Below the pieces are notes generated by a model. It was not told the DNA's origin. It ran no database searches and saw only the letters and a program-made list of their open reading frames with translations. The position numbers and the translations under genes are program-made. From Fimbriimonadia bacterium (GTDB lineage Bacteria; Armatimonadota; Fimbriimonadia; Fimbriimonadales; JABRVX01), in contig JBGPGO010000003.1 of NCBI GenBank assembly GCA_041483895.1, positions 64,001-128,000 of the forward strand: DNA of 64,000 bases. Direction: 5' to 3'. Of this stretch, positions 5,664-16,557 are shown in pieces. Each line of letters opens with the position of its first letter. Positions within the stretch are counted from its first letter, which is position 1.

Positions 5664-7940
5664 ATGACCGCACTGCTGCTAGTTGCCCTATCCGCCATGT
5701 GCCTTCAACAACCCACCACCGAAACCCTGAACGTTGACGGCGACAATGTGCGCATCGTACGAGATGGGTACGGGGTTCCGCACGTCTTCGCGAGCACATG
5801 GAAGGGCCTGTTCCATGGCGACGGATACGCCATCGCCCAGGACCGGCTGTGGCAGATGGAACGCAGCCGCCGGATGGCGCTCGGCCAACTGGCCGAGATA
5901 TACGGTCCCAGTGCGGTGGAGCAGGACAAAACAGCGCGAATCGACGGCTACACGGAAGAGGAGCGAATGCGACAGTTCGCTCGCCTCGCGGAGCCTGTGC
6001 GGGTCGCGATCCAGTCCTATGTAGACGGCATCAACGAATGCATCCGCAAAGGCAAGCTCCCTGGCGAGTTCGCTCAATTCGGGGTTCAGCCGCGCCCTTG
6101 GACAATCAATGATTCCCTGTCTATCGTCCAGTTCATGAGCCGGCGCTTTGGCGTTTTCGGCGAGGGCGAGCTGCGAAACATGGCCGCCTACCTGATGCTG
6201 CAGGGAAAGCTGAAAGACAAGGCGCTAAACGCAATCAACGACATCGCCTGGATGGAGGACCCGGACTCGCCCACTTCTGTCCCCCACCGATCGACGCAGG
6301 GCTTGGTCAAGCCGGTCCCGAAGGCAGTGACCGAAAAGCACCTGGCACTACTGCCAAAGATGAGCGTTCTCGATCTGATGGACGCGATACGGCTTGCCTC
6401 AGCGGAGCCGCAAACGGTGTTTGCCGAGCAGCATGGCCTCTACACCCATTTCGGCAGCTACGCCGTCGCCGTAGACGCCAAGCACTCCCTGAGCGGTCAC
6501 AGCATGCTGCTCGGCGCGCCGCAGATGGGCTGGACCACGCCACAAATCGCCCATGAGGTCCAACTCAGCGGCGGCGGAATCAACGTTACGGGAATGGGGT
6601 TCGCCGGCGTGCCCGGAGTGTTGATCGGATTTACGCCGGATATCGCCTGGACCACCACCTCCGGCCTCGGCGACCTGGCGGATGTGTTCGTGCTGAAGCT
6701 CGATCCCACCAACCCCAAGAACTATCTCTATAAAGGCAAGAGCACGCCGTTTGAGGAGCGTCGGGAGACGATTGCCGTGAAGGGCGCGGACCCGGTGCAG
6801 ATTACCGTTCGGCGGTGCGTGTACGGGCCGGTCCTCAAGGTTGTCGGGGGTCGAATGGCGTTCGCGCGCTGCGCCTCCTACTGGGACAAAGAGCAGGAGA
6901 ATTTCGACGGGTTTTTTGGCTTTTACAGCGCCAAGACGATGGACGATTTCGAGCGGGCGTGCGCGAAAGTGGTCGGCTCGCACAACTTCCTCTGCGCGAC
7001 CAAAGACGGCCAGATCGGCTATTGGTACACGGGCCGGTATCCCATACGGAACCCGGATCTGGACCCGCGCTTCCCGGTCCCCGGCGACGGGGAACATGAT
7101 TGGAAGGGCTTCGTGCCGTTTTCTCAGCTACCCAAGGTGCGAAATCCCGAGCAGGGCTGGCTGGGCAACTGGAACAATAAGCCGGCGCTCGGATATTCCA
7201 ATTCGGACACCCCGGTCTGGGGCGCGCTGCAGCGGTTCCAGATGGTCCAGAACTATTTCCGAGATAAGAAAACAATCTCAATGGATGATCTGCGGGGCCT
7301 GACGCCGACGATTGCGACCACCAACGCGGATGCGGAGTTCATTCTGCCTGTCCTGCTTGCGGCCAAGCCGACCCCTGCGACCGAAACGGCGTTCCGGATT
7401 TTGAAGGCGTGGAATCATCGGGAGATGGAGGGCTGCCCGGCGGCCACTATTTTCGGTACGTTCATGAACAAACTGCGCGACGAGATGTTCCTGCCGCTGC
7501 TTGGCAACTTTGGAAGCGACAGCAGCTTCCGGCAGGTGACGCAGCCGAGCTACATCTACCGGGCGCTGGTTGGGGGTCCGAATAGCATAGGGAAGGGGCT
7601 GGATTATTTCGGTGGGCGCACGCGGGATCAGGTCGTGATTGCGGCGCTGGAGAAGACGGTGACGGAGCTGACCGGCAAATACGGCCCGGATCTGTACGCC
7701 GTTCCTTACCGGGCGGGCCGAATGAGTCTAGCCCCGCTGCCGGATGTTCCGTACAACAATCGCGGGACGTTCATTCAGATTGTCGAGATGTCTGCTGCCG
7801 GCCCGCGCGGCATCAGTGTGTTGTGCCCTGGCCAGAGCGAAGACCCGCTATCCAAACACTATTCCGATCAGCGCGATTTGTCGTCGTGGTGGATCTACAA
7901 GCCGATGTTGTGGCGTGAAGAAGACCTCATCCAAAAGTAG
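5664..7940 (+). CDS. Penicillin acylase family (Ntn-hydrolase) protein
   Basis: VRIVRDGYGVPHVFA, GYAIAQDRLWQME, HFG/SYAVAV (Ser nucleophile position), NPEQGWLGNWNNKP, PGQSEDPLSKHYSDQ. Confidence 0.93.
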   Translation: MTALLLVALSAMCLQQPTTETLNVDGDNVRIVRDGYGVPHVFASTWKGLFHGDGYAIAQDRLWQMERSRRMALGQLAEIYGPSAVEQDKTARIDGYTEEERMRQFARLAEPVRVAIQSYVDGINECIRKGKLPGEFAQFGVQPRPWTINDSLSIVQFMSRRFGVFGEGELRNMAAYLMLQGKLKDKALNAINDIAWMEDPDSPTSVPHRSTQGLVKPVPKAVTEKHLALLPKMSVLDLMDAIRLASAEPQTVFAEQHGLYTHFGSYAVAVDAKHSLSGHSMLLGAPQMGWTTPQIAHEVQLSGGGINVTGMGFAGVPGVLIGFTPDIAWTTTSGLGDLADVFVLKLDPTNPKNYLYKGKSTPFEERRETIAVKGADPVQITVRRCVYGPVLKVVGGRMAFARCASYWDKEQENFDGFFGFYSAKTMDDFERACAKVVGSHNFLCATKDGQIGYWYTGRYPIRNPDLDPRFPVPGDGEHDWKGFVPFSQLPKVRNPEQGWLGNWNNKPALGYSNSDTPVWGALQRFQMVQNYFRDKKTISMDDLRGLTPTIATTNADAEFILPVLLAAKPTPATETAFRILKAWNHREMEGCPAATIFGTFMNKLRDEMFLPLLGNFGSDSSFRQVTQPSYIYRALVGGPNSIGKGLDYFGGRTRDQVVIAALEKTVTELTGKYGPDLYAVPYRAGRMSLAPLPDVPYNNRGTFIQIVEMSAAGPRGISVLCPGQSEDPLSKHYSDQRDLSSWWIYKPMLWREEDLIQK

Positions 7941-8036
7941 CCGCGGTTCCTCGTTACGACCACTGCTCGAATCGCCCGGTAGCCGCGGTTCCTCGTTCCG
8001 ACCACTTTCTCGAATGCCGACCACAAGAACCGCGTA
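7937..8036 (+). repeat. GTAG-tagged REP cluster left of the RAYT
   Basis: GTAGCCGCGGTTCCTCGTT(A/C)CGACCACT at 7937 and 7979, then GCCGACCACAAGAACCGCGTA at 8016-8036. Confidence 0.88.
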
Positions 8037-8085
8037 AACCCGGTGGAAACAGTATGAATCGGCGGGAGGTTGAATCCTCTTGGGC

Positions 8086-8571
8086 ATGGAGCGCGTGAAG
8101 GAAAAGAGACACCGCTTGCCGGCGGCCGCGTACCGAGGAGAGGTGATTGTCGCATTCACCTCCCGCATCGAAGGCGCCGCCGACGCCTTCACGGACGAGC
8201 AACTCGTCGAACGATTCAAGATGTATCTGGAAACATCCGCGAAACGATACCGATGCCTCATTCCCATCTTCTGCTTCATGACGGATCATCTGCATGTGAT
8301 CTTTGAAGGCATATCGGAGAATTCCGACGCGCGTGAGGCCATGATTCGATTCAAGCGATTGACGGGCCGGTGGTTGAGCGAATCCAACAAGGCGTTTCGT
8401 TGGCAAAAAGACTTCTACGATCACATTCTTCGTCCGGATGAGGATGTGCGCAATCAGGTGCGATATATCGCCAACAATCCTGTCCGAAAGAAGTTGGTCG
8501 ATGATTGGACCAAGTACCCGCACACCGGCAGCTTCGGGTATGACCTTCACGATTTGATTGCCTACTCGTAG
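8086..8571 (+). mobile_element. REP-associated tyrosine transposase (RAYT, Y1/HUH family)
   Basis: HRL..., FMTDHLHVI (HUH), WQKDFYDHILR, RYIANNPV (catalytic Tyr); flanked by inverted GTAG REPs. Confidence 0.93.
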
Positions 8572-8580
8572 GTCAGTTGG

Positions 8581-8679
8581 TACGCGGTTCTTGTGGTCGG
8601 CGGATCGGACAGTTATTGGAACGAGGAACCGCGGCTACGAAGGGATTCGGTCAGGGTCGGCACGAGGAACCGCGACTAC
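8581..8679 (-). repeat. GTAG-tagged REP cluster right of the RAYT (inverted relative to the left cluster)
   Basis: TACGCGGTTCTTGTGGTCGGC (8581-8601) is the exact reverse complement of 8016-8036; GAGGAACCGCG(G/A)CTAC ends at 8638 and 8679. Confidence 0.88.
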
Positions 8680-10998: not shown

Positions 10999-11907
10999 TC
11001 ATTCCCCGTCGTGATGGATTTTCTGATGCAGCAGTTCGGCTTCGTAGGGCTCGAAATGAATTGTGATTTGCAGGTCGGGAAACGCTTCCCGGGCGCGCTC
11101 TTCCAACGCCTCCGTAATCTGGTGTGCCTCAATCAGGGTAAGGCTGTCCGGCAACTGCACATGGACATCGACGTGCCGCTCTCGGCCACCCCTCCTCGTG
11201 CGAAGTTTGTGATAGCTGCGAACCGCTGGGTGGGAAGCCAGAATTTCCCGAATTTTCGCCTCCTCATTGCTGGGCAGCGACGCGTCCATGAGCGGCTGCA
11301 CCGATTCTCTCACCAAGTGCCAGGATGTTCGGATAATCAATATCGAAACGGCGAAAGCCGCTATCGAATCGAATATCGCGGAACCGGTCTGGCGGACCAA
11401 GAAGAGGCCGGCGAGCACGCCAAGCGATGTCCAAACGTCTGACAGAAGGTGGTATCCGTCGGCCTTGAGCGCGGGGGATTCGGTCCGTTTGGCGGTTCTG
11501 AGCAGGTAGGTCGAGAGGATCACGTTGACACCCGCCGACACCAACATGAGCACGATTGCCGGGCCGACTTGCAGTTCATGTCGGCGGATGAGCGCTGCAA
11601 CGGCCTCGACGATGACGACAATCGCTCCGGCGAAGATCAGAATTCCTTGCACGAGCGCGGAGAGGTTTTCGGCTTTTCCATGACCATACGGATGATCCAC
11701 ATCGGCCGGCGCTTCGGCGGTACGTATGGCGAAATAGGCAAGAAGGCTCGCCACGAGGTCGGACGCCGAGTGGATCGCCTCCGACATGACGCTGACCGTG
11801 TGCGTAAGCAGGCCGATCACCAGCTTCGCAAGGGTGAGAAAGCTGTTGGATGCGATCGACATCTGAGCAGCGCGCAGCTTGGCTCGTTTTGAATCCGTCG
11901 GGATCAC
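10999..11907 (-). CDS. Cation diffusion facilitator (FieF-like) transporter
   Basis: SEAIHSASD, DHPYGHGKAE, ADGYHLLSD, HKLRTR, ITIHFEP. Confidence 0.93.
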   Translation of the reverse strand: MIPTDSKRAKLRAAQMSIASNSFLTLAKLVIGLLTHTVSVMSEAIHSASDLVASLLAYFAIRTAEAPADVDHPYGHGKAENLSALVQGILIFAGAIVVIVEAVAALIRRHELQVGPAIVLMLVSAGVNVILSTYLLRTAKRTESPALKADGYHLLSDVWTSLGVLAGLFLVRQTGSAIFDSIAAFAVSILIIRTSWHLVRESVQPLMDASLPSNEEAKIREILASHPAVRSYHKLRTRRGGRERHVDVHVQLPDSLTLIEAHQITEALEERAREAFPDLQITIHFEPYEAELLHQKIHHDGE

Positions 11908-12017
11908 GTAGCGATTATGGGCATCCTAGCCGCACGATACGGATCGAAACGGAGCATAGCCCTAGAAATTTCTCTGGGCTCTGAGGCTGGAAAGTTAAGA
12001 AAATGGTTCAAATTAAC

Positions 12018-12046
12018 TCGCCATCCGAGGAAAGTTGCGGTATTAT
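12018..12046 (+). promoter_or_regulatory. Putative sigma70 promoter of the candidate ncRNA
   Basis: TCGCCA-17 nt-TATTAT. Confidence 0.55.
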
Positions 12047-12052
12047 GAGACG

Positions 12053-12471
12053 AGAAAGCGGTGTACCCGGCGAAAGTCGCTGGTTGCCGCATAGTTGCTT
12101 TGTTCTCTCGAAGGAGAGCTTATTGTGTGCATTGGATGGGGAGCCTTTCCCCCTGGGGGTAAGGTGCAACGCTTAGAAGCTTATCTTTTCGGTATTGCTT
12201 TTAGGAACGCAGGCCGCTACCGGATGGCTTGGAACGGTCGAACTCGTCCCCCGCATCGATTTCTCCCTTCTTGCTGTTGTCAACTCTGGCTATTGTTGCG
12301 CGCTATGCGCATCGCGGACTCCCGCACGAGCAGCAGATTGACGTGGTTGGCCGATCGCCGGGGGGCGCCTTCTGCCCAAACCCAACGACCGGTCGAATTC
12401 ACGCGATTTTCGCTTGGTCAGAGTGAAACATGGGGCGGAGGCCCCACCAGGTGCCTCCGCCCAACTTTTTT
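12053..12471 (+). ncRNA. Candidate structured non-coding RNA, family unassigned
   Basis: Long intergenic gap bounded by a promoter and a terminator, with many hairpins and long-range helices and no convincing ORF. Confidence 0.5.
12433..12471 (+). terminator. Intrinsic terminator (may also serve convergent pepF)
   Basis: GGGCGGAGGC / GCCTCCGCCC stem followed by AACTTTTTT. Confidence 0.8.
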
Positions 12472-12493
12472 CCACTGATTTTGTGACCGCGAC

Positions 12494-14293
12494 TTACGCT
12501 TTGTATTCGCTCCAGAGCTTCTCGAATTCCTCGACCCGGCTATGCAAAGCCTTGAATCCGCCACGCCAGAAGTCCGCGGACCGAATGTCGATGCCAACAG
12601 TCGACATCAGCTCGTGGGGCGATCGGCTGCCGCCGGCACGCAGTAGGTCCAGATATTTGTCCGCAAAGCCAGGGCCCTGGTCCCGAGCCATCTGATAGAG
12701 GGACAGCACAAGCAGCTCCCCAAACGAGTACGCGTACACGTAGAACGGGCTGAAGATGAAATGCGGAACGTACGACCACCAGGATCGGTGCTCCTCGCCC
12801 AGCTTCACAGCCGAGCCGAACATGGCCTGTTGACGCTTGTGCCAATACTCACCCAACTCGCCGGCCTTCAATTCGCCCTTCGACCGTCGATGATTGTGTG
12901 CGTCCTGCTCGAACCGGTACATCGCCGCCTGCCGGAAGATGGTCGCGAACGACCCCTCGATGTTCTCGGCGTACATCGCCAGGCGATCCTTCAGCGATGC
13001 CTTCTCCTGCAACGCATCGAATACCAGCATCTCGCCGAAGGTGCTGGCAAGCTCCGCCAATGGAAGCGTGCTGTGAAAGTTCAGGTAGGTTTGGGTGCGG
13101 GACAGGGAACCGTGAACTCCGTGGCCCAATTCGTGCGCCAGGGTCAGGACGCCATCCATTTTGCCAAGGTAGTTCATGAAGACGTAGGGATGGAGATCGG
13201 TCGTGATGGAGGTGCAGTAGGCGCCGCCCATCTTTCCGGGACGCGGCTCGGCGTCGATCCATTCCTTGTCGAAAAACTCCAGCGCTGCATTGCGGAGATC
13301 GGGGGAGAAGCGGCCAAAGCTGTCCAATACCATCTCTTTCGCGGATTCCCAGCCTACCGAACCCTCCGTTTCGAAGAGCGGAGCGTATCGGTCGTAGTGG
13401 GTGAGTTCGGACAGGCCTAGGATATCGCGCTTAAGATGGTAATAGCGTTCACAGATCGGATGGTTCTCTTCGCAGAGCTTCATCACCATCTCGACGGTCT
13501 CTTCTTCCAATTCATTCGCGATATGTCGGGACTGTTGCGGTTCTCTTAGGCCGCGCAGGCGGTCGTTCGTGGCTTTGTCTAGTAGGAGCGTATTGAACGT
13601 GAGGACCAGTACTCGCTCCAGCTCGGCCAGCCCCTTGGTCAGGGTGGTGGCGGCGGCGCGGCGTAGATCGCGGTCTGGCTCCCGCAGTTTGTCCAGCAGC
13701 TCAGGCTCCGTGAGATCTTCCACCTCACCGTTGAACTCCAGCTTGAAGACGTGGTTCGAGACGATATCGGAGAACAGGCGGCCGAATGCCCGGCAGCCAG
13801 TGGTCCTCATCTCCTCGACGATGCGCTCTTCGGGTTCGGTGAGCGTGAAGTCTTTGTAGGCTCGCGCCGCGATGACATAGTGGCGGTAGTTCTCCAGCAT
13901 CGGATTGGAGAGCAGCCGCTGCATGACGCCATCATCGAGTTTCAATAGCTCGAGTGCGAAGAAGATCGTATGGATGCCGATGGACGTGCATCGCTCCTCG
14001 ATTTTCTGCATGAACGCGCCAATGTCAGGATCGCTCGTGTCGGCGGAAAAGACCATGTGTGCGTAGGACTGTGGCTTAGCGCCCTCCTCGTCCAGCGCTT
14101 CGTATTCCTGGATCGCGGTAAGCAAAGTATCGGCGGTCACGTCGGGCGTATTGATTTTGCCTTTGAATCGATTCGAAAAGGCCTTTGCCTTGGCCTCCAA
14201 TGAGTCCAAATGTTGGTCGATTCGTGGATCGGCGATGGAACTGTAAAGATCGGACAGGACCCACTTTGGGGCGGTCGGTACGGCGGTCGTCAT
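12494..14293 (-). CDS. pepF: M3 family oligoendopeptidase F
   Basis: WVLSDLY, GKMGGAYC, TLAHELGHGVH, AELASTFGE, PHF..FYVYAY; AAGGAG SD before ATG 14293. Confidence 0.93.
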   Translation of the reverse strand: MTTAVPTAPKWVLSDLYSSIADPRIDQHLDSLEAKAKAFSNRFKGKINTPDVTADTLLTAIQEYEALDEEGAKPQSYAHMVFSADTSDPDIGAFMQKIEERCTSIGIHTIFFALELLKLDDGVMQRLLSNPMLENYRHYVIAARAYKDFTLTEPEERIVEEMRTTGCRAFGRLFSDIVSNHVFKLEFNGEVEDLTEPELLDKLREPDRDLRRAAATTLTKGLAELERVLVLTFNTLLLDKATNDRLRGLREPQQSRHIANELEEETVEMVMKLCEENHPICERYYHLKRDILGLSELTHYDRYAPLFETEGSVGWESAKEMVLDSFGRFSPDLRNAALEFFDKEWIDAEPRPGKMGGAYCTSITTDLHPYVFMNYLGKMDGVLTLAHELGHGVHGSLSRTQTYLNFHSTLPLAELASTFGEMLVFDALQEKASLKDRLAMYAENIEGSFATIFRQAAMYRFEQDAHNHRRSKGELKAGELGEYWHKRQQAMFGSAVKLGEEHRSWWSYVPHFIFSPFYVYAYSFGELLVLSLYQMARDQGPGFADKYLDLLRAGGSRSPHELMSTVGIDIRSADFWRGGFKALHSRVEEFEKLWSEYKA

Positions 14294-14450: not shown

Positions 14451-16064
14451 ATGCGCCGTACCATAACAATCGTTTCGCTGCTTGTTGCCACGTTCGCGAC
14501 CGCCCAGGAAGACCGCGGCGTGCTCGGAAGCCTCGCCAAGCCGATGGATGGCCGAAGCATGCGCGCCACCTCGACCATGCGCGAAGGGCCGGATGGGAAG
14601 TATGATTCCAAAGCCTTCCCCAAGGGGGATCTGGAAGAGAAAAGCAACTACGACAATTTTCGTGTCGCGCCCGGCCAGACCCATGTGCTGATGGATGTCA
14701 AAGGACCCGGCGTGATTACCCATATATGGCTGACGTTTCTTGGGCCGGAGCCGCAGGGATGGGCCAAGGAGGGTTCGGCAACGCACCAGGATATGCTGCT
14801 GCGAATCTATTGGGATGGGAGCGACAAGCCCGGGGTTGAGGCACCAGTCGGGGATTTTTTTGCGAACTGTTTTGGGATTCGCAGCGAGGTGATCAGTCTG
14901 CCGGTTCTTGTCGAGGATGCCGATTCGTACAACTGTTATTGGCAGATGCCGTTTCGAAAGTCCGCGCGGGTGGAGATCGTCAATCAGGGCACGAAGAATA
15001 TCAATCTTCTCTATTACAATATCGATTGGATCAAGCGGGTTAGCCTGCCGAAAGACACCCCCTATTTTTATGCGCAATATCGGCAGGAGTACCCGGTGGA
15101 GCATAGCAAGGACTACGTGTTACTGGATACCAAGGGCAAGGGGCACTATGTGGGGACGGTGCTGGCGGTGCGCACGCGAAGCCCTTCTTGGTTTGGCGAG
15201 GGGGACGAGAAGATATATATAGATGGCGAGGAACATGCGTCGATTTGGGGGACGGGGACGGAGGACTATTTCCTTTCCGCGTGGGGGCTGAAGAAGACCA
15301 GCACGCCCTATTTTGGGGTGCCCTATTTTGATCAGTGGGGCATCGTCGGCGGGCATACCAGCGCGTACCGATGGCATATCAACGATCCCATTGTGTTTCA
15401 AAAAGGGATCAGAGTGACCATCGAGCACTTCGGTTGGATCTCGTCCGATGAGAACCCGAAGCATCAGACGAATAGTTGGAACGAGCGCCAGGACGACTAT
15501 TCCAGTGTGGCGTTTTGGTATCAGTCGGGGACGCCGACGTTTACCGCACGCGCGCCGTCGGGGGCTGAACGGCGGCTGCCGAATATCGAGCGATTGGTCT
15601 CTTATGCCCGCGATGGTGCGACCCACGGCGTGGGCCCGGCGGAAAACCAGCAGCTTGATCTGTATGATGGTCCGCAGGTCTTGTACCGACCGGCGGCGCA
15701 AGAGGGGGCTTGGCTGGAGGTTCCGTTTGAGGTGAAGAAAAAGGAGCCGCTTCGGTTGCTTCTCGATATGACCAAGTCGTTTGATTTCGGCCGGTATCAG
15801 GCGTATTTGAACGGCATCAAGTTGGGCGGACCCTTCGATTTGTATAGCAAGGATGTTGAGAACGTGGAGGTGCATCTGCTGGACTTCTGGCCGGACCCGG
15901 GGAAGTACACATTGCGGCTGGAATGCGTCGGGAAGAACATCGTCTCGTCCGGCTATTTCCTTGGGATCGAGTCGGTGCGTCTGCGCGAACGCCGCCCGCG
16001 CGTGACGGAGTTTGGTTGGGATAAGGATAAGGATTGGAAGAAAGAGCCGACGTTGTATGAATGA
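14451..16064 (+). CDS. DUF2961 (GH172-like) glycoside hydrolase, exported
   Basis: GPGVITHIWLT, PVGDFF, NCYWQMPF, WFGEGDE, GTGTEDYF, YRWHINDPI, DDYSSVAFWYQ. Confidence 0.9.
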   Translation: MRRTITIVSLLVATFATAQEDRGVLGSLAKPMDGRSMRATSTMREGPDGKYDSKAFPKGDLEEKSNYDNFRVAPGQTHVLMDVKGPGVITHIWLTFLGPEPQGWAKEGSATHQDMLLRIYWDGSDKPGVEAPVGDFFANCFGIRSEVISLPVLVEDADSYNCYWQMPFRKSARVEIVNQGTKNINLLYYNIDWIKRVSLPKDTPYFYAQYRQEYPVEHSKDYVLLDTKGKGHYVGTVLAVRTRSPSWFGEGDEKIYIDGEEHASIWGTGTEDYFLSAWGLKKTSTPYFGVPYFDQWGIVGGHTSAYRWHINDPIVFQKGIRVTIEHFGWISSDENPKHQTNSWNERQDDYSSVAFWYQSGTPTFTARAPSGAERRLPNIERLVSYARDGATHGVGPAENQQLDLYDGPQVLYRPAAQEGAWLEVPFEVKKKEPLRLLLDMTKSFDFGRYQAYLNGIKLGGPFDLYSKDVENVEVHLLDFWPDPGKYTLRLECVGKNIVSSGYFLGIESVRLRERRPRVTEFGWDKDKDWKKEPTLYE

Positions 16065-16557
16065 ACCGGTTGGTTCTCATAATACTGAGATTGATCCTCG
16101 GTTCGCGACCATAATTGCACCCCTACCTGCTCTCTTCTCACGGTTAGTAAATTCCAAACCTGTCAAAGTCGGAAGCGTTCCTAGAAATGCGTCAGATCGC
16201 TGCGTTTACCTCATGAGCGAATCAGGGATCCCACTATATGTCGGAAGAACTCGTAGATTACGCCAGCGGATGCGAAACCATAGTAATGCTTCATCGCAGC
16301 ACAATCAAGCGGTGTTCGCGTTCCGCTTAGCTTGCGAGTCTCTTAGTAAGGGGCCAAGAACATATTCTGGAATTGGTACGAGACGAGCGCTTGCAGAAAA
16401 TCCGGAATTCTCTCGCGTGTTCGGCCTCTCAAAGACTAGAGTTCGTGAAATGGAGCTTCGTTATGTCGAGGTTACTGATCCTTTACATCAAACATTGTTA
16501 GAGATCTATGCTGCGATTGTCTTGCAGACTCCATACAATGATTTTGATACGCACTAA
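16057..16557 (+). CDS. GIY-YIG nuclease family protein
   Basis: CVYLMSESGIPLYVGRTRRLRQRMRNH and LLEIY; AT-richer; start overlaps the upstream stop. Confidence 0.8.
   Translation: MNEPVGSHNTEIDPRFATIIAPLPALFSRLVNSKPVKVGSVPRNASDRCVYLMSESGIPLYVGRTRRLRQRMRNHSNASSQHNQAVFAFRLACESLSKGPRTYSGIGTRRALAENPEFSRVFGLSKTRVREMELRYVEVTDPLHQTLLEIYAAIVLQTPYNDFDTH

Follow-up and report, generated by a model that had tools for sequence, protein, structure and literature searches.

A predicted stand-alone structured RNA found in one small family of Fimbriimonadales, with a 3′ block that recurs once upstream of purC

We find that a gap between a CDF transporter gene and a pepF-type gene very probably holds the gene of a stand-alone structured non-coding RNA of ~420 nt, here called RNA1, equipped with its own extended -10 promoter and terminator. 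None was detected outside a single small family of uncultured bacteria in the genomes searched; with this very narrow range, RNA1 apparently represents a new family of structured RNAs. Unless a contig or locus is named, coordinates are those of the window, the whole 64,000-nt stretch of DNA that was analyzed from the source genome (G000). This genome was compared with the other two genomes of the same Fimbriimonadales family, G001 and G002, which share one of the two genera sampled (n = 3 genomes, completeness 95-98%).

The RNA1 locus and its distribution

The gap, put at ~590 nt in the initial annotation, measures 586 nt (11908-12493), and every motif quoted in that annotation was recovered where it had been placed. 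In all three genomes the RNA1 element is flanked by the same two genes (Table 1). Counted from promoter through U-tail, its orthologues in the two relatives are 458 and 461 nt long. The three loci share the promoter block, the terminator, an invariant 32-nt block, a CTCTC/GAGAG hairpin and several motifs of 7-8 nt, while G001 and G002 carry ~50 extra nt in the middle of the element. Between G001 and G002, DNA identity over the RNA1 element (~460 nt) is 90%, compared to 83.5% for pepF, 86% for the CDF gene and 79% for the upstream spacer.

Table 1 Features of the RNA1 locus and of the second site (window coordinates unless a contig is given)
Feature	Position	Strand	Remarks
CDF (cation efflux) transporter gene	10999..11907	-	PF01545 and PF16916; divergent; syntenic in 3/3 genomes
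Promoter-like site	12018..12046	+	weak -35 at 12018-12023; conserved extended -10 block at 12031-12046
Predicted RNA (RNA1), ~419 nt	12053..12471	+	start placed from the -10 position; 458 and 461 nt in the homologues
Hairpin 1 (predicted)	12068..12082	+	stem kept, loop variable
127-codon ORF, judged spurious	12095..12478	+	no Pfam match; Atlas top score 0.76; homologous frame without protein-type selection
Hairpin 2 (predicted)	12103..12118	+	CTCTC/GAGAG stem invariant
Domain II, predicted multibranch	12131..12260	+	three internal hairpins; sequences differ between genera
5′ arm of predicted long-range helix	12283..12292	+	pairs with 12415-12424; arm varies between genomes, partner fixed
Two invariant 8-mers	12328-12335 and 12339-12346	+	no settled partner
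Conserved stem (predicted), AACCC-containing loop (12379-12383)	12348..12395	+	22-nt insertion in G000
Invariant 32-nt block	12407..12438	+	20-nt core 12415-12434 recurs once elsewhere per genome
Intrinsic terminator-like hairpin and U6 tail	12433..12471	+	stem 12433-12462, U6 12466-12471
pepF-type oligoendopeptidase (M3) gene	12494..14290	-	PF01432 and PF08439; convergent neighbor
Site 2 (second 20-nt copy)	G000:C26:12195-12214		261-293 nt upstream of purC in the three genomes

A BLAST search of the element against 101 relatives returned matches in only three genomes, G000 included, all of them members of the family. Two models of low power, built from the three sequences, were run on 150 genomes of the order and 150 of the phylum, so that absence here refers to the genomes searched; model R1 gave 7 and 12 weak out-of-family matches, respectively (19.7-24.6 bits), all of which lacked the 32-nt block on inspection, and model R2 matched 3/150 and 1/150 genomes, family members only. 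Near pepF, no RNA1 was detected at 27 loci of other families (including genome G036, which also belongs to the genome sets searched), nor among the best 20 of 80 metagenome loci. A 20-mer of RNA1 had no match in metagenome contigs. A 19-mer matched four times in species genomes, two of them Fimbriimonadales, and once in viral contigs, at a place without the conserved flanks. Of 19 one-mismatch matches to a 16-mer in other families, 18 fell within long open frames. A gapped 5′ pattern produced 19 matches in viral contigs, all at 17 bits or below, and the one that was inspected proved to be coding sequence; with no match in phage genomes and one chance match in plasmids, the viral, phage and plasmid searches yielded no credible RNA1.

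Elsewhere in the window, an IS200-like Y1 transposase gene (8080-8571, PF01797) lies in a region (7923-8679) where two pairs of 21-28 nt repeats flank the gene in inverted arrangement, as in REP-associated transposases. A small GIY-YIG domain gene (weak Pfam match, E 2.7e-4) is located at 16057-16557.

Promoter, terminator and coding potential

The promoter proposed in the initial annotation, TCGCCA-17-TATTAT at 12018-12046, was correctly positioned but is by itself at chance level (one found, 0.5 expected). The candidate gains weight because the block is conserved in the homologues, both of which keep AAAGTTGCGGTA.TAT at the same spacing. With a lineage -10 model trained on 182 start-proximal sites of G000, the RNA1 promoter was the best site of the region in all three genomes, in or near the top quarter, with scores of 10.0, 9.8-10.4 and 9.8 where chance would supply ~0.07 sites scoring at least 9 per 260 nt; as the training sites were picked by a TAnnnT pattern, this model is not independent of the TAnnnT consensus. 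The terminator that had been placed at 12433-12471 was borne out by a hairpin with two compensatory pairs and an AAC-U6 tail identical in the three genomes. A consensus terminator scanner gave no call there, the hairpin having a 10-nt loop and 3 nt between it and the U run.

The open reading frames in the gap had been dismissed as spurious, and the comparison upholds this in the absence of Pfam or Atlas support and in a substitution pattern unlike that of proteins. Most of the RNA1 element in G001, and likewise in G002, is spanned by a single open frame of ~130 codons, which over its initial two thirds keeps the frame of the 127-codon ORF of G000, as would be expected if the locus were a small protein gene that is frameshifted in G000. 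This is highly improbable, as differences between G001 and G002 fall 16/7/17 on the three codon positions of this frame, with 13 synonymous and 22 non-synonymous codons, compared to 58/35/212 for pepF. In addition, the frame has no ATG start and is broken in G000, and sequence invariance extends beyond its stop codon. The homologues thus do not conserve a reading frame in the manner of a protein gene, and no short hydrophobic ORF of the kind found in type I toxin mRNAs is common to the three RNA1 sequences.

Relation to catalogued RNA classes

A search of the region with the Rfam 15 covariance models, which had been suggested as a check, returned no match to RNA1 near a gathering score. The best local match was osmY at 22.7 bits (cut-off 46.9), on the minus strand; over the whole window only a tRNA was found, and at the homologue loci nothing overlapped RNA1 at E values up to 10. 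The hallmarks of tmRNA, RNase P and SRP had been reported as absent, in agreement with the location of the housekeeping copies elsewhere in G000, where tmRNA (contig C5), RNase P (C17), large SRP (C16) and 6S RNA (C7) all score over their cut-offs. The OLE RNA model (RF01071) exceeded its cut-off in none of the three genomes, its best score being 9.4 bits at another place (the 14 control genomes were likewise all without OLE, which leaves this search without a positive control).

The surroundings of RNA1 differ from those of other known types as well. A riboswitch or 5′ leader would have a gene on the same strand directly downstream, a feature that is absent, pepF being convergent in all three genomes, and the phage or prophage location of ROOL and GOLLD is also absent, RNA1 being chromosomal between CDF and pepF throughout. 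Features of Hfq-type sRNAs are present, namely an Hfq gene (PF17209) in each of the three family genomes and a conserved terminator hairpin with U6. Taken with the Rfam result, the conservation of promoter and terminator and the substitution pattern fit the original proposal of an independently transcribed structured RNA that would belong to no catalogued class. Literature joining Armatimonadota with ncRNA terms, a scope outside which supplementary motif tables fall, contained no report of such an RNA, and a term find in the main text of PMC11109978 gave neither “Armatimonad” nor “Fimbriimon”.

In family f4, a conserved RNA-like element of ~330 nt (L268:990-1335, minus strand; also L274, L277 and L279) is located upstream of coaD in divergent orientation; it has a promoter-like site and a U-tail of its own and no Rfam match at cut-off. 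Kinship of RNA1 with this element was considered and rejected, the two having no similarity (P 0.36-0.65).

Predicted fold of RNA1

The plus-strand fold of RNA1 in G000 beats 100/100 shuffles (z -3.1), and without the terminator it gives z -2.95, compared to -0.71 for the minus strand. Folded alone without the terminator, the homologues reach z -0.47 (G001) and -2.21 (G002). A three-way consensus fold without the terminator, computed on an alignment anchored on hand-picked motifs, beats 60/60 column shuffles (z -4.9) and contains 17 pairs changed on both sides, compared to a shuffle mean of 10.3 (1/60 shuffles reached 17); on the minus strand there are 11 such pairs compared to 9.4 (20/60 shuffles). 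A conserved plus-strand fold is only modestly supported, because the minus-strand consensus also scores z -4.1, and its details are provisional, because only three sequences are available and two of them are 90% identical. The structure conservation index of the consensus is moderate (0.58), and a substitution test between G001 and G002 detected no excess of kept pairs (P 0.53 and 0.009, with 0.17 and 0.002 for the minus-strand control).

The minus-strand score, together with the chance-level fold of G001, is also what one would expect if no functional RNA existed and the locus were instead an antisense promoter or an element conserved as DNA, its hairpins serving to terminate pepF. We consider this very improbable, as the element is conserved over ~460 nt above the level of both coding DNA and spacer, and as promoter and U-tail both face the plus strand in all three genomes.

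Helices present in all three sequences are those at 12068/12082, 12103/12118, 12210/12231, 12283/12424 and 12348/12395 and the terminator, and in the 12210-12231 hairpin of domain II both sides have changed in three of five pairs. Two of the helices that had been paired by eye are supported. The CCTTT hairpin has a pair probability of ~0.9, and the CTCTC/GAGAG hairpin is invariant in the three sequences, though its probability in G000 is only 0.03-0.23. Others are specific to G000: the GCGGTG/TGCCGC helix exists in G000 only, its 5′ arm having no counterpart in the homologues, as does the GNRA loop, where the homologues have UCAUGA, and the TGCGC/GCGCA and GCGG/CCGC hairpins form in G000 with a probability of ~1 but are replaced in the homologues by a CGCG/CGCG stem over those bases. 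The TGCATT/GGTGCA, GTCAA/TTGAC and 12235/12386 helices are not supported by folding, with a probability of zero; the conserved partner of 12386-12395 is 12348-12357. A long-range helix missed in the initial annotation, 12284-12292/12415-12423, is predicted with a probability of 0.98-0.99 for seven of nine pairs and is present in all three sequences. The 32-nt block can form an 8-bp hairpin with a GGUCA loop.

A second copy of the 3′ block upstream of purC

The 20-nt core of the 3′ block occurs in exactly two copies, with no mismatch to the pattern, in each of the three family genomes, and no exact copy was found in the other 148 genomes searched. Four of these 148 contain single matches with two mismatches, where a reversed control gives three. 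The second copy (site 2) always lies between purC (SAICAR synthetase) and tRNA-Pro(GGG). In other families it is absent upstream of purC at 26 of 27 loci within the upstream stretch examined, the sole match at a purC locus having three mismatches and lying 1.25 kb away. RNA1 and site 2 therefore share one distribution, both being restricted to the family among the genomes and purC loci searched. Between the genera, 18 of the 20 core bases are fixed, in a setting where the neighboring genes are 60-65% identical in protein, and between G001 and G002 the block around site 2 is 75-90% identical, compared to 53-63% for the spacer nearer purC. The bases 5′ of the block are alike within a genus, reading CGCGAT at both G000 copies and GGYGCGC at both copies in G001 and G002.

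Beyond the block, same-strand similarity between RNA1 and site 2 is not significant (P 0.18-0.94) and the shared stretch is limited to 20-40 nt; paralogy of site 2 with RNA1 was set aside. A transcription-factor regulon was also rejected, since no further copy exists in G000 at one to three mismatches. A ykkC/PRPP riboswitch at site 2, considered for its resemblance, was rejected as no Rfam match was obtained, and a parS-like site was set aside because the sequence is not palindromic, has only two copies and lies off the dnaA and parA contigs. A SECIS mimic formed by the block hairpin was rejected as well, with SelA over cut-off in 76 of 151 order genomes (G036 included) and loops that vary among candidate G000 SECIS elements.

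A strong promoter-like site (score 11) stands just before the purC start codon in all three genomes, 245-276 nt from site 2. Because purC's own promoter lies downstream of it, site 2 is probably outside the purC message and leader. The G001/G002 consensus fold of site 2 reaches -56.9 when computed for the strand opposite purC, the one complementary to RNA1, compared to -41.9 for the purC strand. In G000 both strands of site 2 fold about equally well (z -2.8 and -2.7). A TAnnnT element is located 171-181 nt upstream of site 2 on the strand opposite purC in all three genomes. As a putative promoter of a site-2 transcript (RNA2) it is weak, scoring 6.9, 7.3 and 1.1 where chance would supply ~0.3 sites of at least 7 per 260 nt, and no U-tailed terminator was found after site 2 on this strand in the three genomes.

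The region around site 2 has features of its own. In G000, a large, secreted-looking repeat protein gene (G000:C26:10342-12047, minus strand), which had no Pfam match in the 541 codons scanned, is present in this genome only, and since it lies between site 2 and tRNA-Pro, a site-2 transcript could be its leader there. The G000 PurC (L198:988-2211, C26) contains an in-frame MshEN domain (PF05157, E 2.5e-16) of ~100 residues that is absent from the PurC of G001 and G002. Between site 2 and tRNA-Pro(GGG), G001 (L023) and G002 (L024) have a small ORF with a hydrophobic N-terminus that reads in frame past a TGA at codon 27 to a length of 53 codons. Its changes are mostly synonymous, and a hairpin follows the TGA by ~19 nt. 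As SelA occurs in all three family genomes and tRNA-Sec in G000, the ORF probably encodes a tiny selenoprotein of the membrane, of which G000 yielded no convincing copy. At L227 ~1058-1087 (G002:C49), 30 nt just after the stop codon of another gene are 93% identical to the post-TGA hairpin.

Possible pairing between RNA1 and the second site

In order to account for the two copies, we tentatively favor, at somewhat less than even probability, an interaction in which RNA1 pairs with a transcript from the strand opposite purC at site 2. Trans pairing is proposed because the 3′ block is invariant while its cis partner arm varies, and because there is a single second copy. The invariant block would then be the pairing module of RNA1. 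As long as RNA1 is free, the long-range helix would hold the first half of this module and an AAACAUG stretch would be fairly open, and RNA2, transcribed opposite purC at site 2, would carry the complement of the block. The two would form a duplex of 20-26 bp together with a short second helix, the sequence of which differs between genera, so that one RNA sequesters or switches its partner in the manner of sRNA/sponge or antisense pairs. Hfq would probably take part, and the 5′ domains of RNA1 would supply stability or bind a protein. That either RNA is transcribed, that RNA2 comes from this strand and that the two form a duplex in cells are inferences, as are the direction of control and any influence on purC or further genes.

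After the opening of both structures, the net energy of the predicted RNA1-RNA2 duplex is -11.3, -7.3 and -8.8 kcal/mol in the three genomes. Cofolding forms the duplex in G001 and G002, with gains of -22 and -29 compared to -15 and -11 for same-sense controls; in G000 the duplex did not form (gain -9.9, control -7.9). A short toehold alone is unfavorable (+3.5 to +4.7), and pairing within a genome is not consistently better than across genomes, as G001 RNA1 scores -62 with its own site and -79 with that of G002.

A complementary partner cannot be separated from a same-strand copy by sequence alone. RNA1 could instead be a mimic or decoy, in which one protein binds both its block and the same-strand site-2 transcript or DNA and is titrated by RNA1, a reading that we regard as unlikely. 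It would explain why the GGTCAGAG stretch has a cis partner in all six places, why a hairpin stands shortly upstream of both copies on the plus strand, why model R1 matches site 2 of G000 over its full length (26.6 bits) and why G002 has a plus-strand promoter-like site upstream of site 2. The non-significant similarity outside the block, the absence of degenerate copies and the probable position of site 2 outside a leader, given the purC promoter downstream, weigh against it, and 20 invariant bases would seem long for a protein site.

A scaffold RNA like OLE or ROOL, acting through its fold or as an oligomer, would leave the second copy as a duplication relic or a minor contact. RNA1 resembles such a scaffold in size and multi-domain fold, in having a promoter and a terminator of its own, and in its short invariant stretches and what would be an optional domain in the ~50 extra nt of G001 and G002, and the consensus score and excess of double-changed pairs point in the same direction. 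A relic, on the other hand, would not hold 18 of 20 bases between genera this far apart in protein identity, and the lack of an OLE match, the moderate structure conservation index and the absence of an excess of kept pairs between G001 and G002 add nothing in its favor. We hold this reading to be improbable, though not strongly so.

We also considered bolder readings of the pairing, and judge it decidedly unlikely that RNA1 and an RNA of ~250 nt from the purC-tRNA-Pro interval form an obligate two-RNA machine, joined in one particle by an invariant helix of 20-26 bp, or that RNA1 guides a protein to site-2 DNA. The guide reading in its specific form, with RNA1 as the scaffold and a 3′ guide directing some protein to DNA ahead of purC, is very unlikely. 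A long scaffold whose 3′ end matches one intergenic site over 20 nt fits the pattern outlined for TldR guide RNAs (bioRxiv 10.1101/2023.11.30.569447), but the TnpB-type domains PF07282 and PF01385 were found in none of the three family genomes, no effector gene adjoins RNA1, and IS110, Cas1 and reverse transcriptase are present in only one, two and one of the three, respectively. The five bases that precede site 2 on its 5′ side read TTGAC, TTTTT and ACGCT, one version per genome, so there is no shared target-adjacent motif, and the distance of site 2 from the purC promoter does not suit such a guide either.

Discussion

RNA1 can be compared with several known systems. Like OLE, ROOL and GOLLD as portrayed in PMC12286853, where OLE is given as 577 nt and ROOL as 659 nt, it is predicted to stand alone, to measure several hundred bases and to fold into several domains, and it is an orphan in function. 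Unlike them, it is shorter (420-460 nt), has no Rfam match, is linked to neither phages nor tRNA islands, has a very narrow range and carries a block that is repeated at a second locus. A feature of OLE, ROOL and GOLLD is that they form RNA-only oligomers held by intermolecular bridges.

With Hfq-dependent sRNA/sponge pairs such as GcvB and its sponge, RNA1 shares a promoter, a U-tailed terminator, a conserved stretch that may pair, the presence of Hfq, and one candidate complementary partner locus elsewhere, namely site 2 with its putative transcript. Typical sRNAs are 50-300 nt in length; RNA1 is much longer and more structured, and its complementarity is near-perfect over 20-26 nt in place of a short, imperfect seed. 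GlmY and GlmZ, reported in PMC4152352 as highly similar RNAs, form a decoy pair to which RNA1 and site 2 are alike in that two loci share sequence and one is a possible mimic, but the stretch that RNA1 and site 2 have in common is only 20-40 nt. The likeness to TldR guide RNAs, as far as the bioRxiv report cited above sets them out, is the ~20-nt 3′ match to one intergenic site elsewhere, from which RNA1 departs in having no TnpB-like gene beside it or in the genomes, no conserved target-adjacent motif, and a site that lies off the promoter.

Large stand-alone RNAs of bacteria fall into few known classes, most of them without a known function, and none from Armatimonadota was found in the literature searched. 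The reach of the present finding is limited by its narrow range (three genomes) and by the lack of a cultured host. Should the two-RNA machine or the guide reading be true, it would be a kind of system that we did not find described in the literature searched. For this family of bacteria, RNA1 brings with it a built-in lead in the form of a single second locus where 20 bases have stayed nearly fixed alongside the tail of the RNA, and its mechanism may be tested with two RNAs in a tube.
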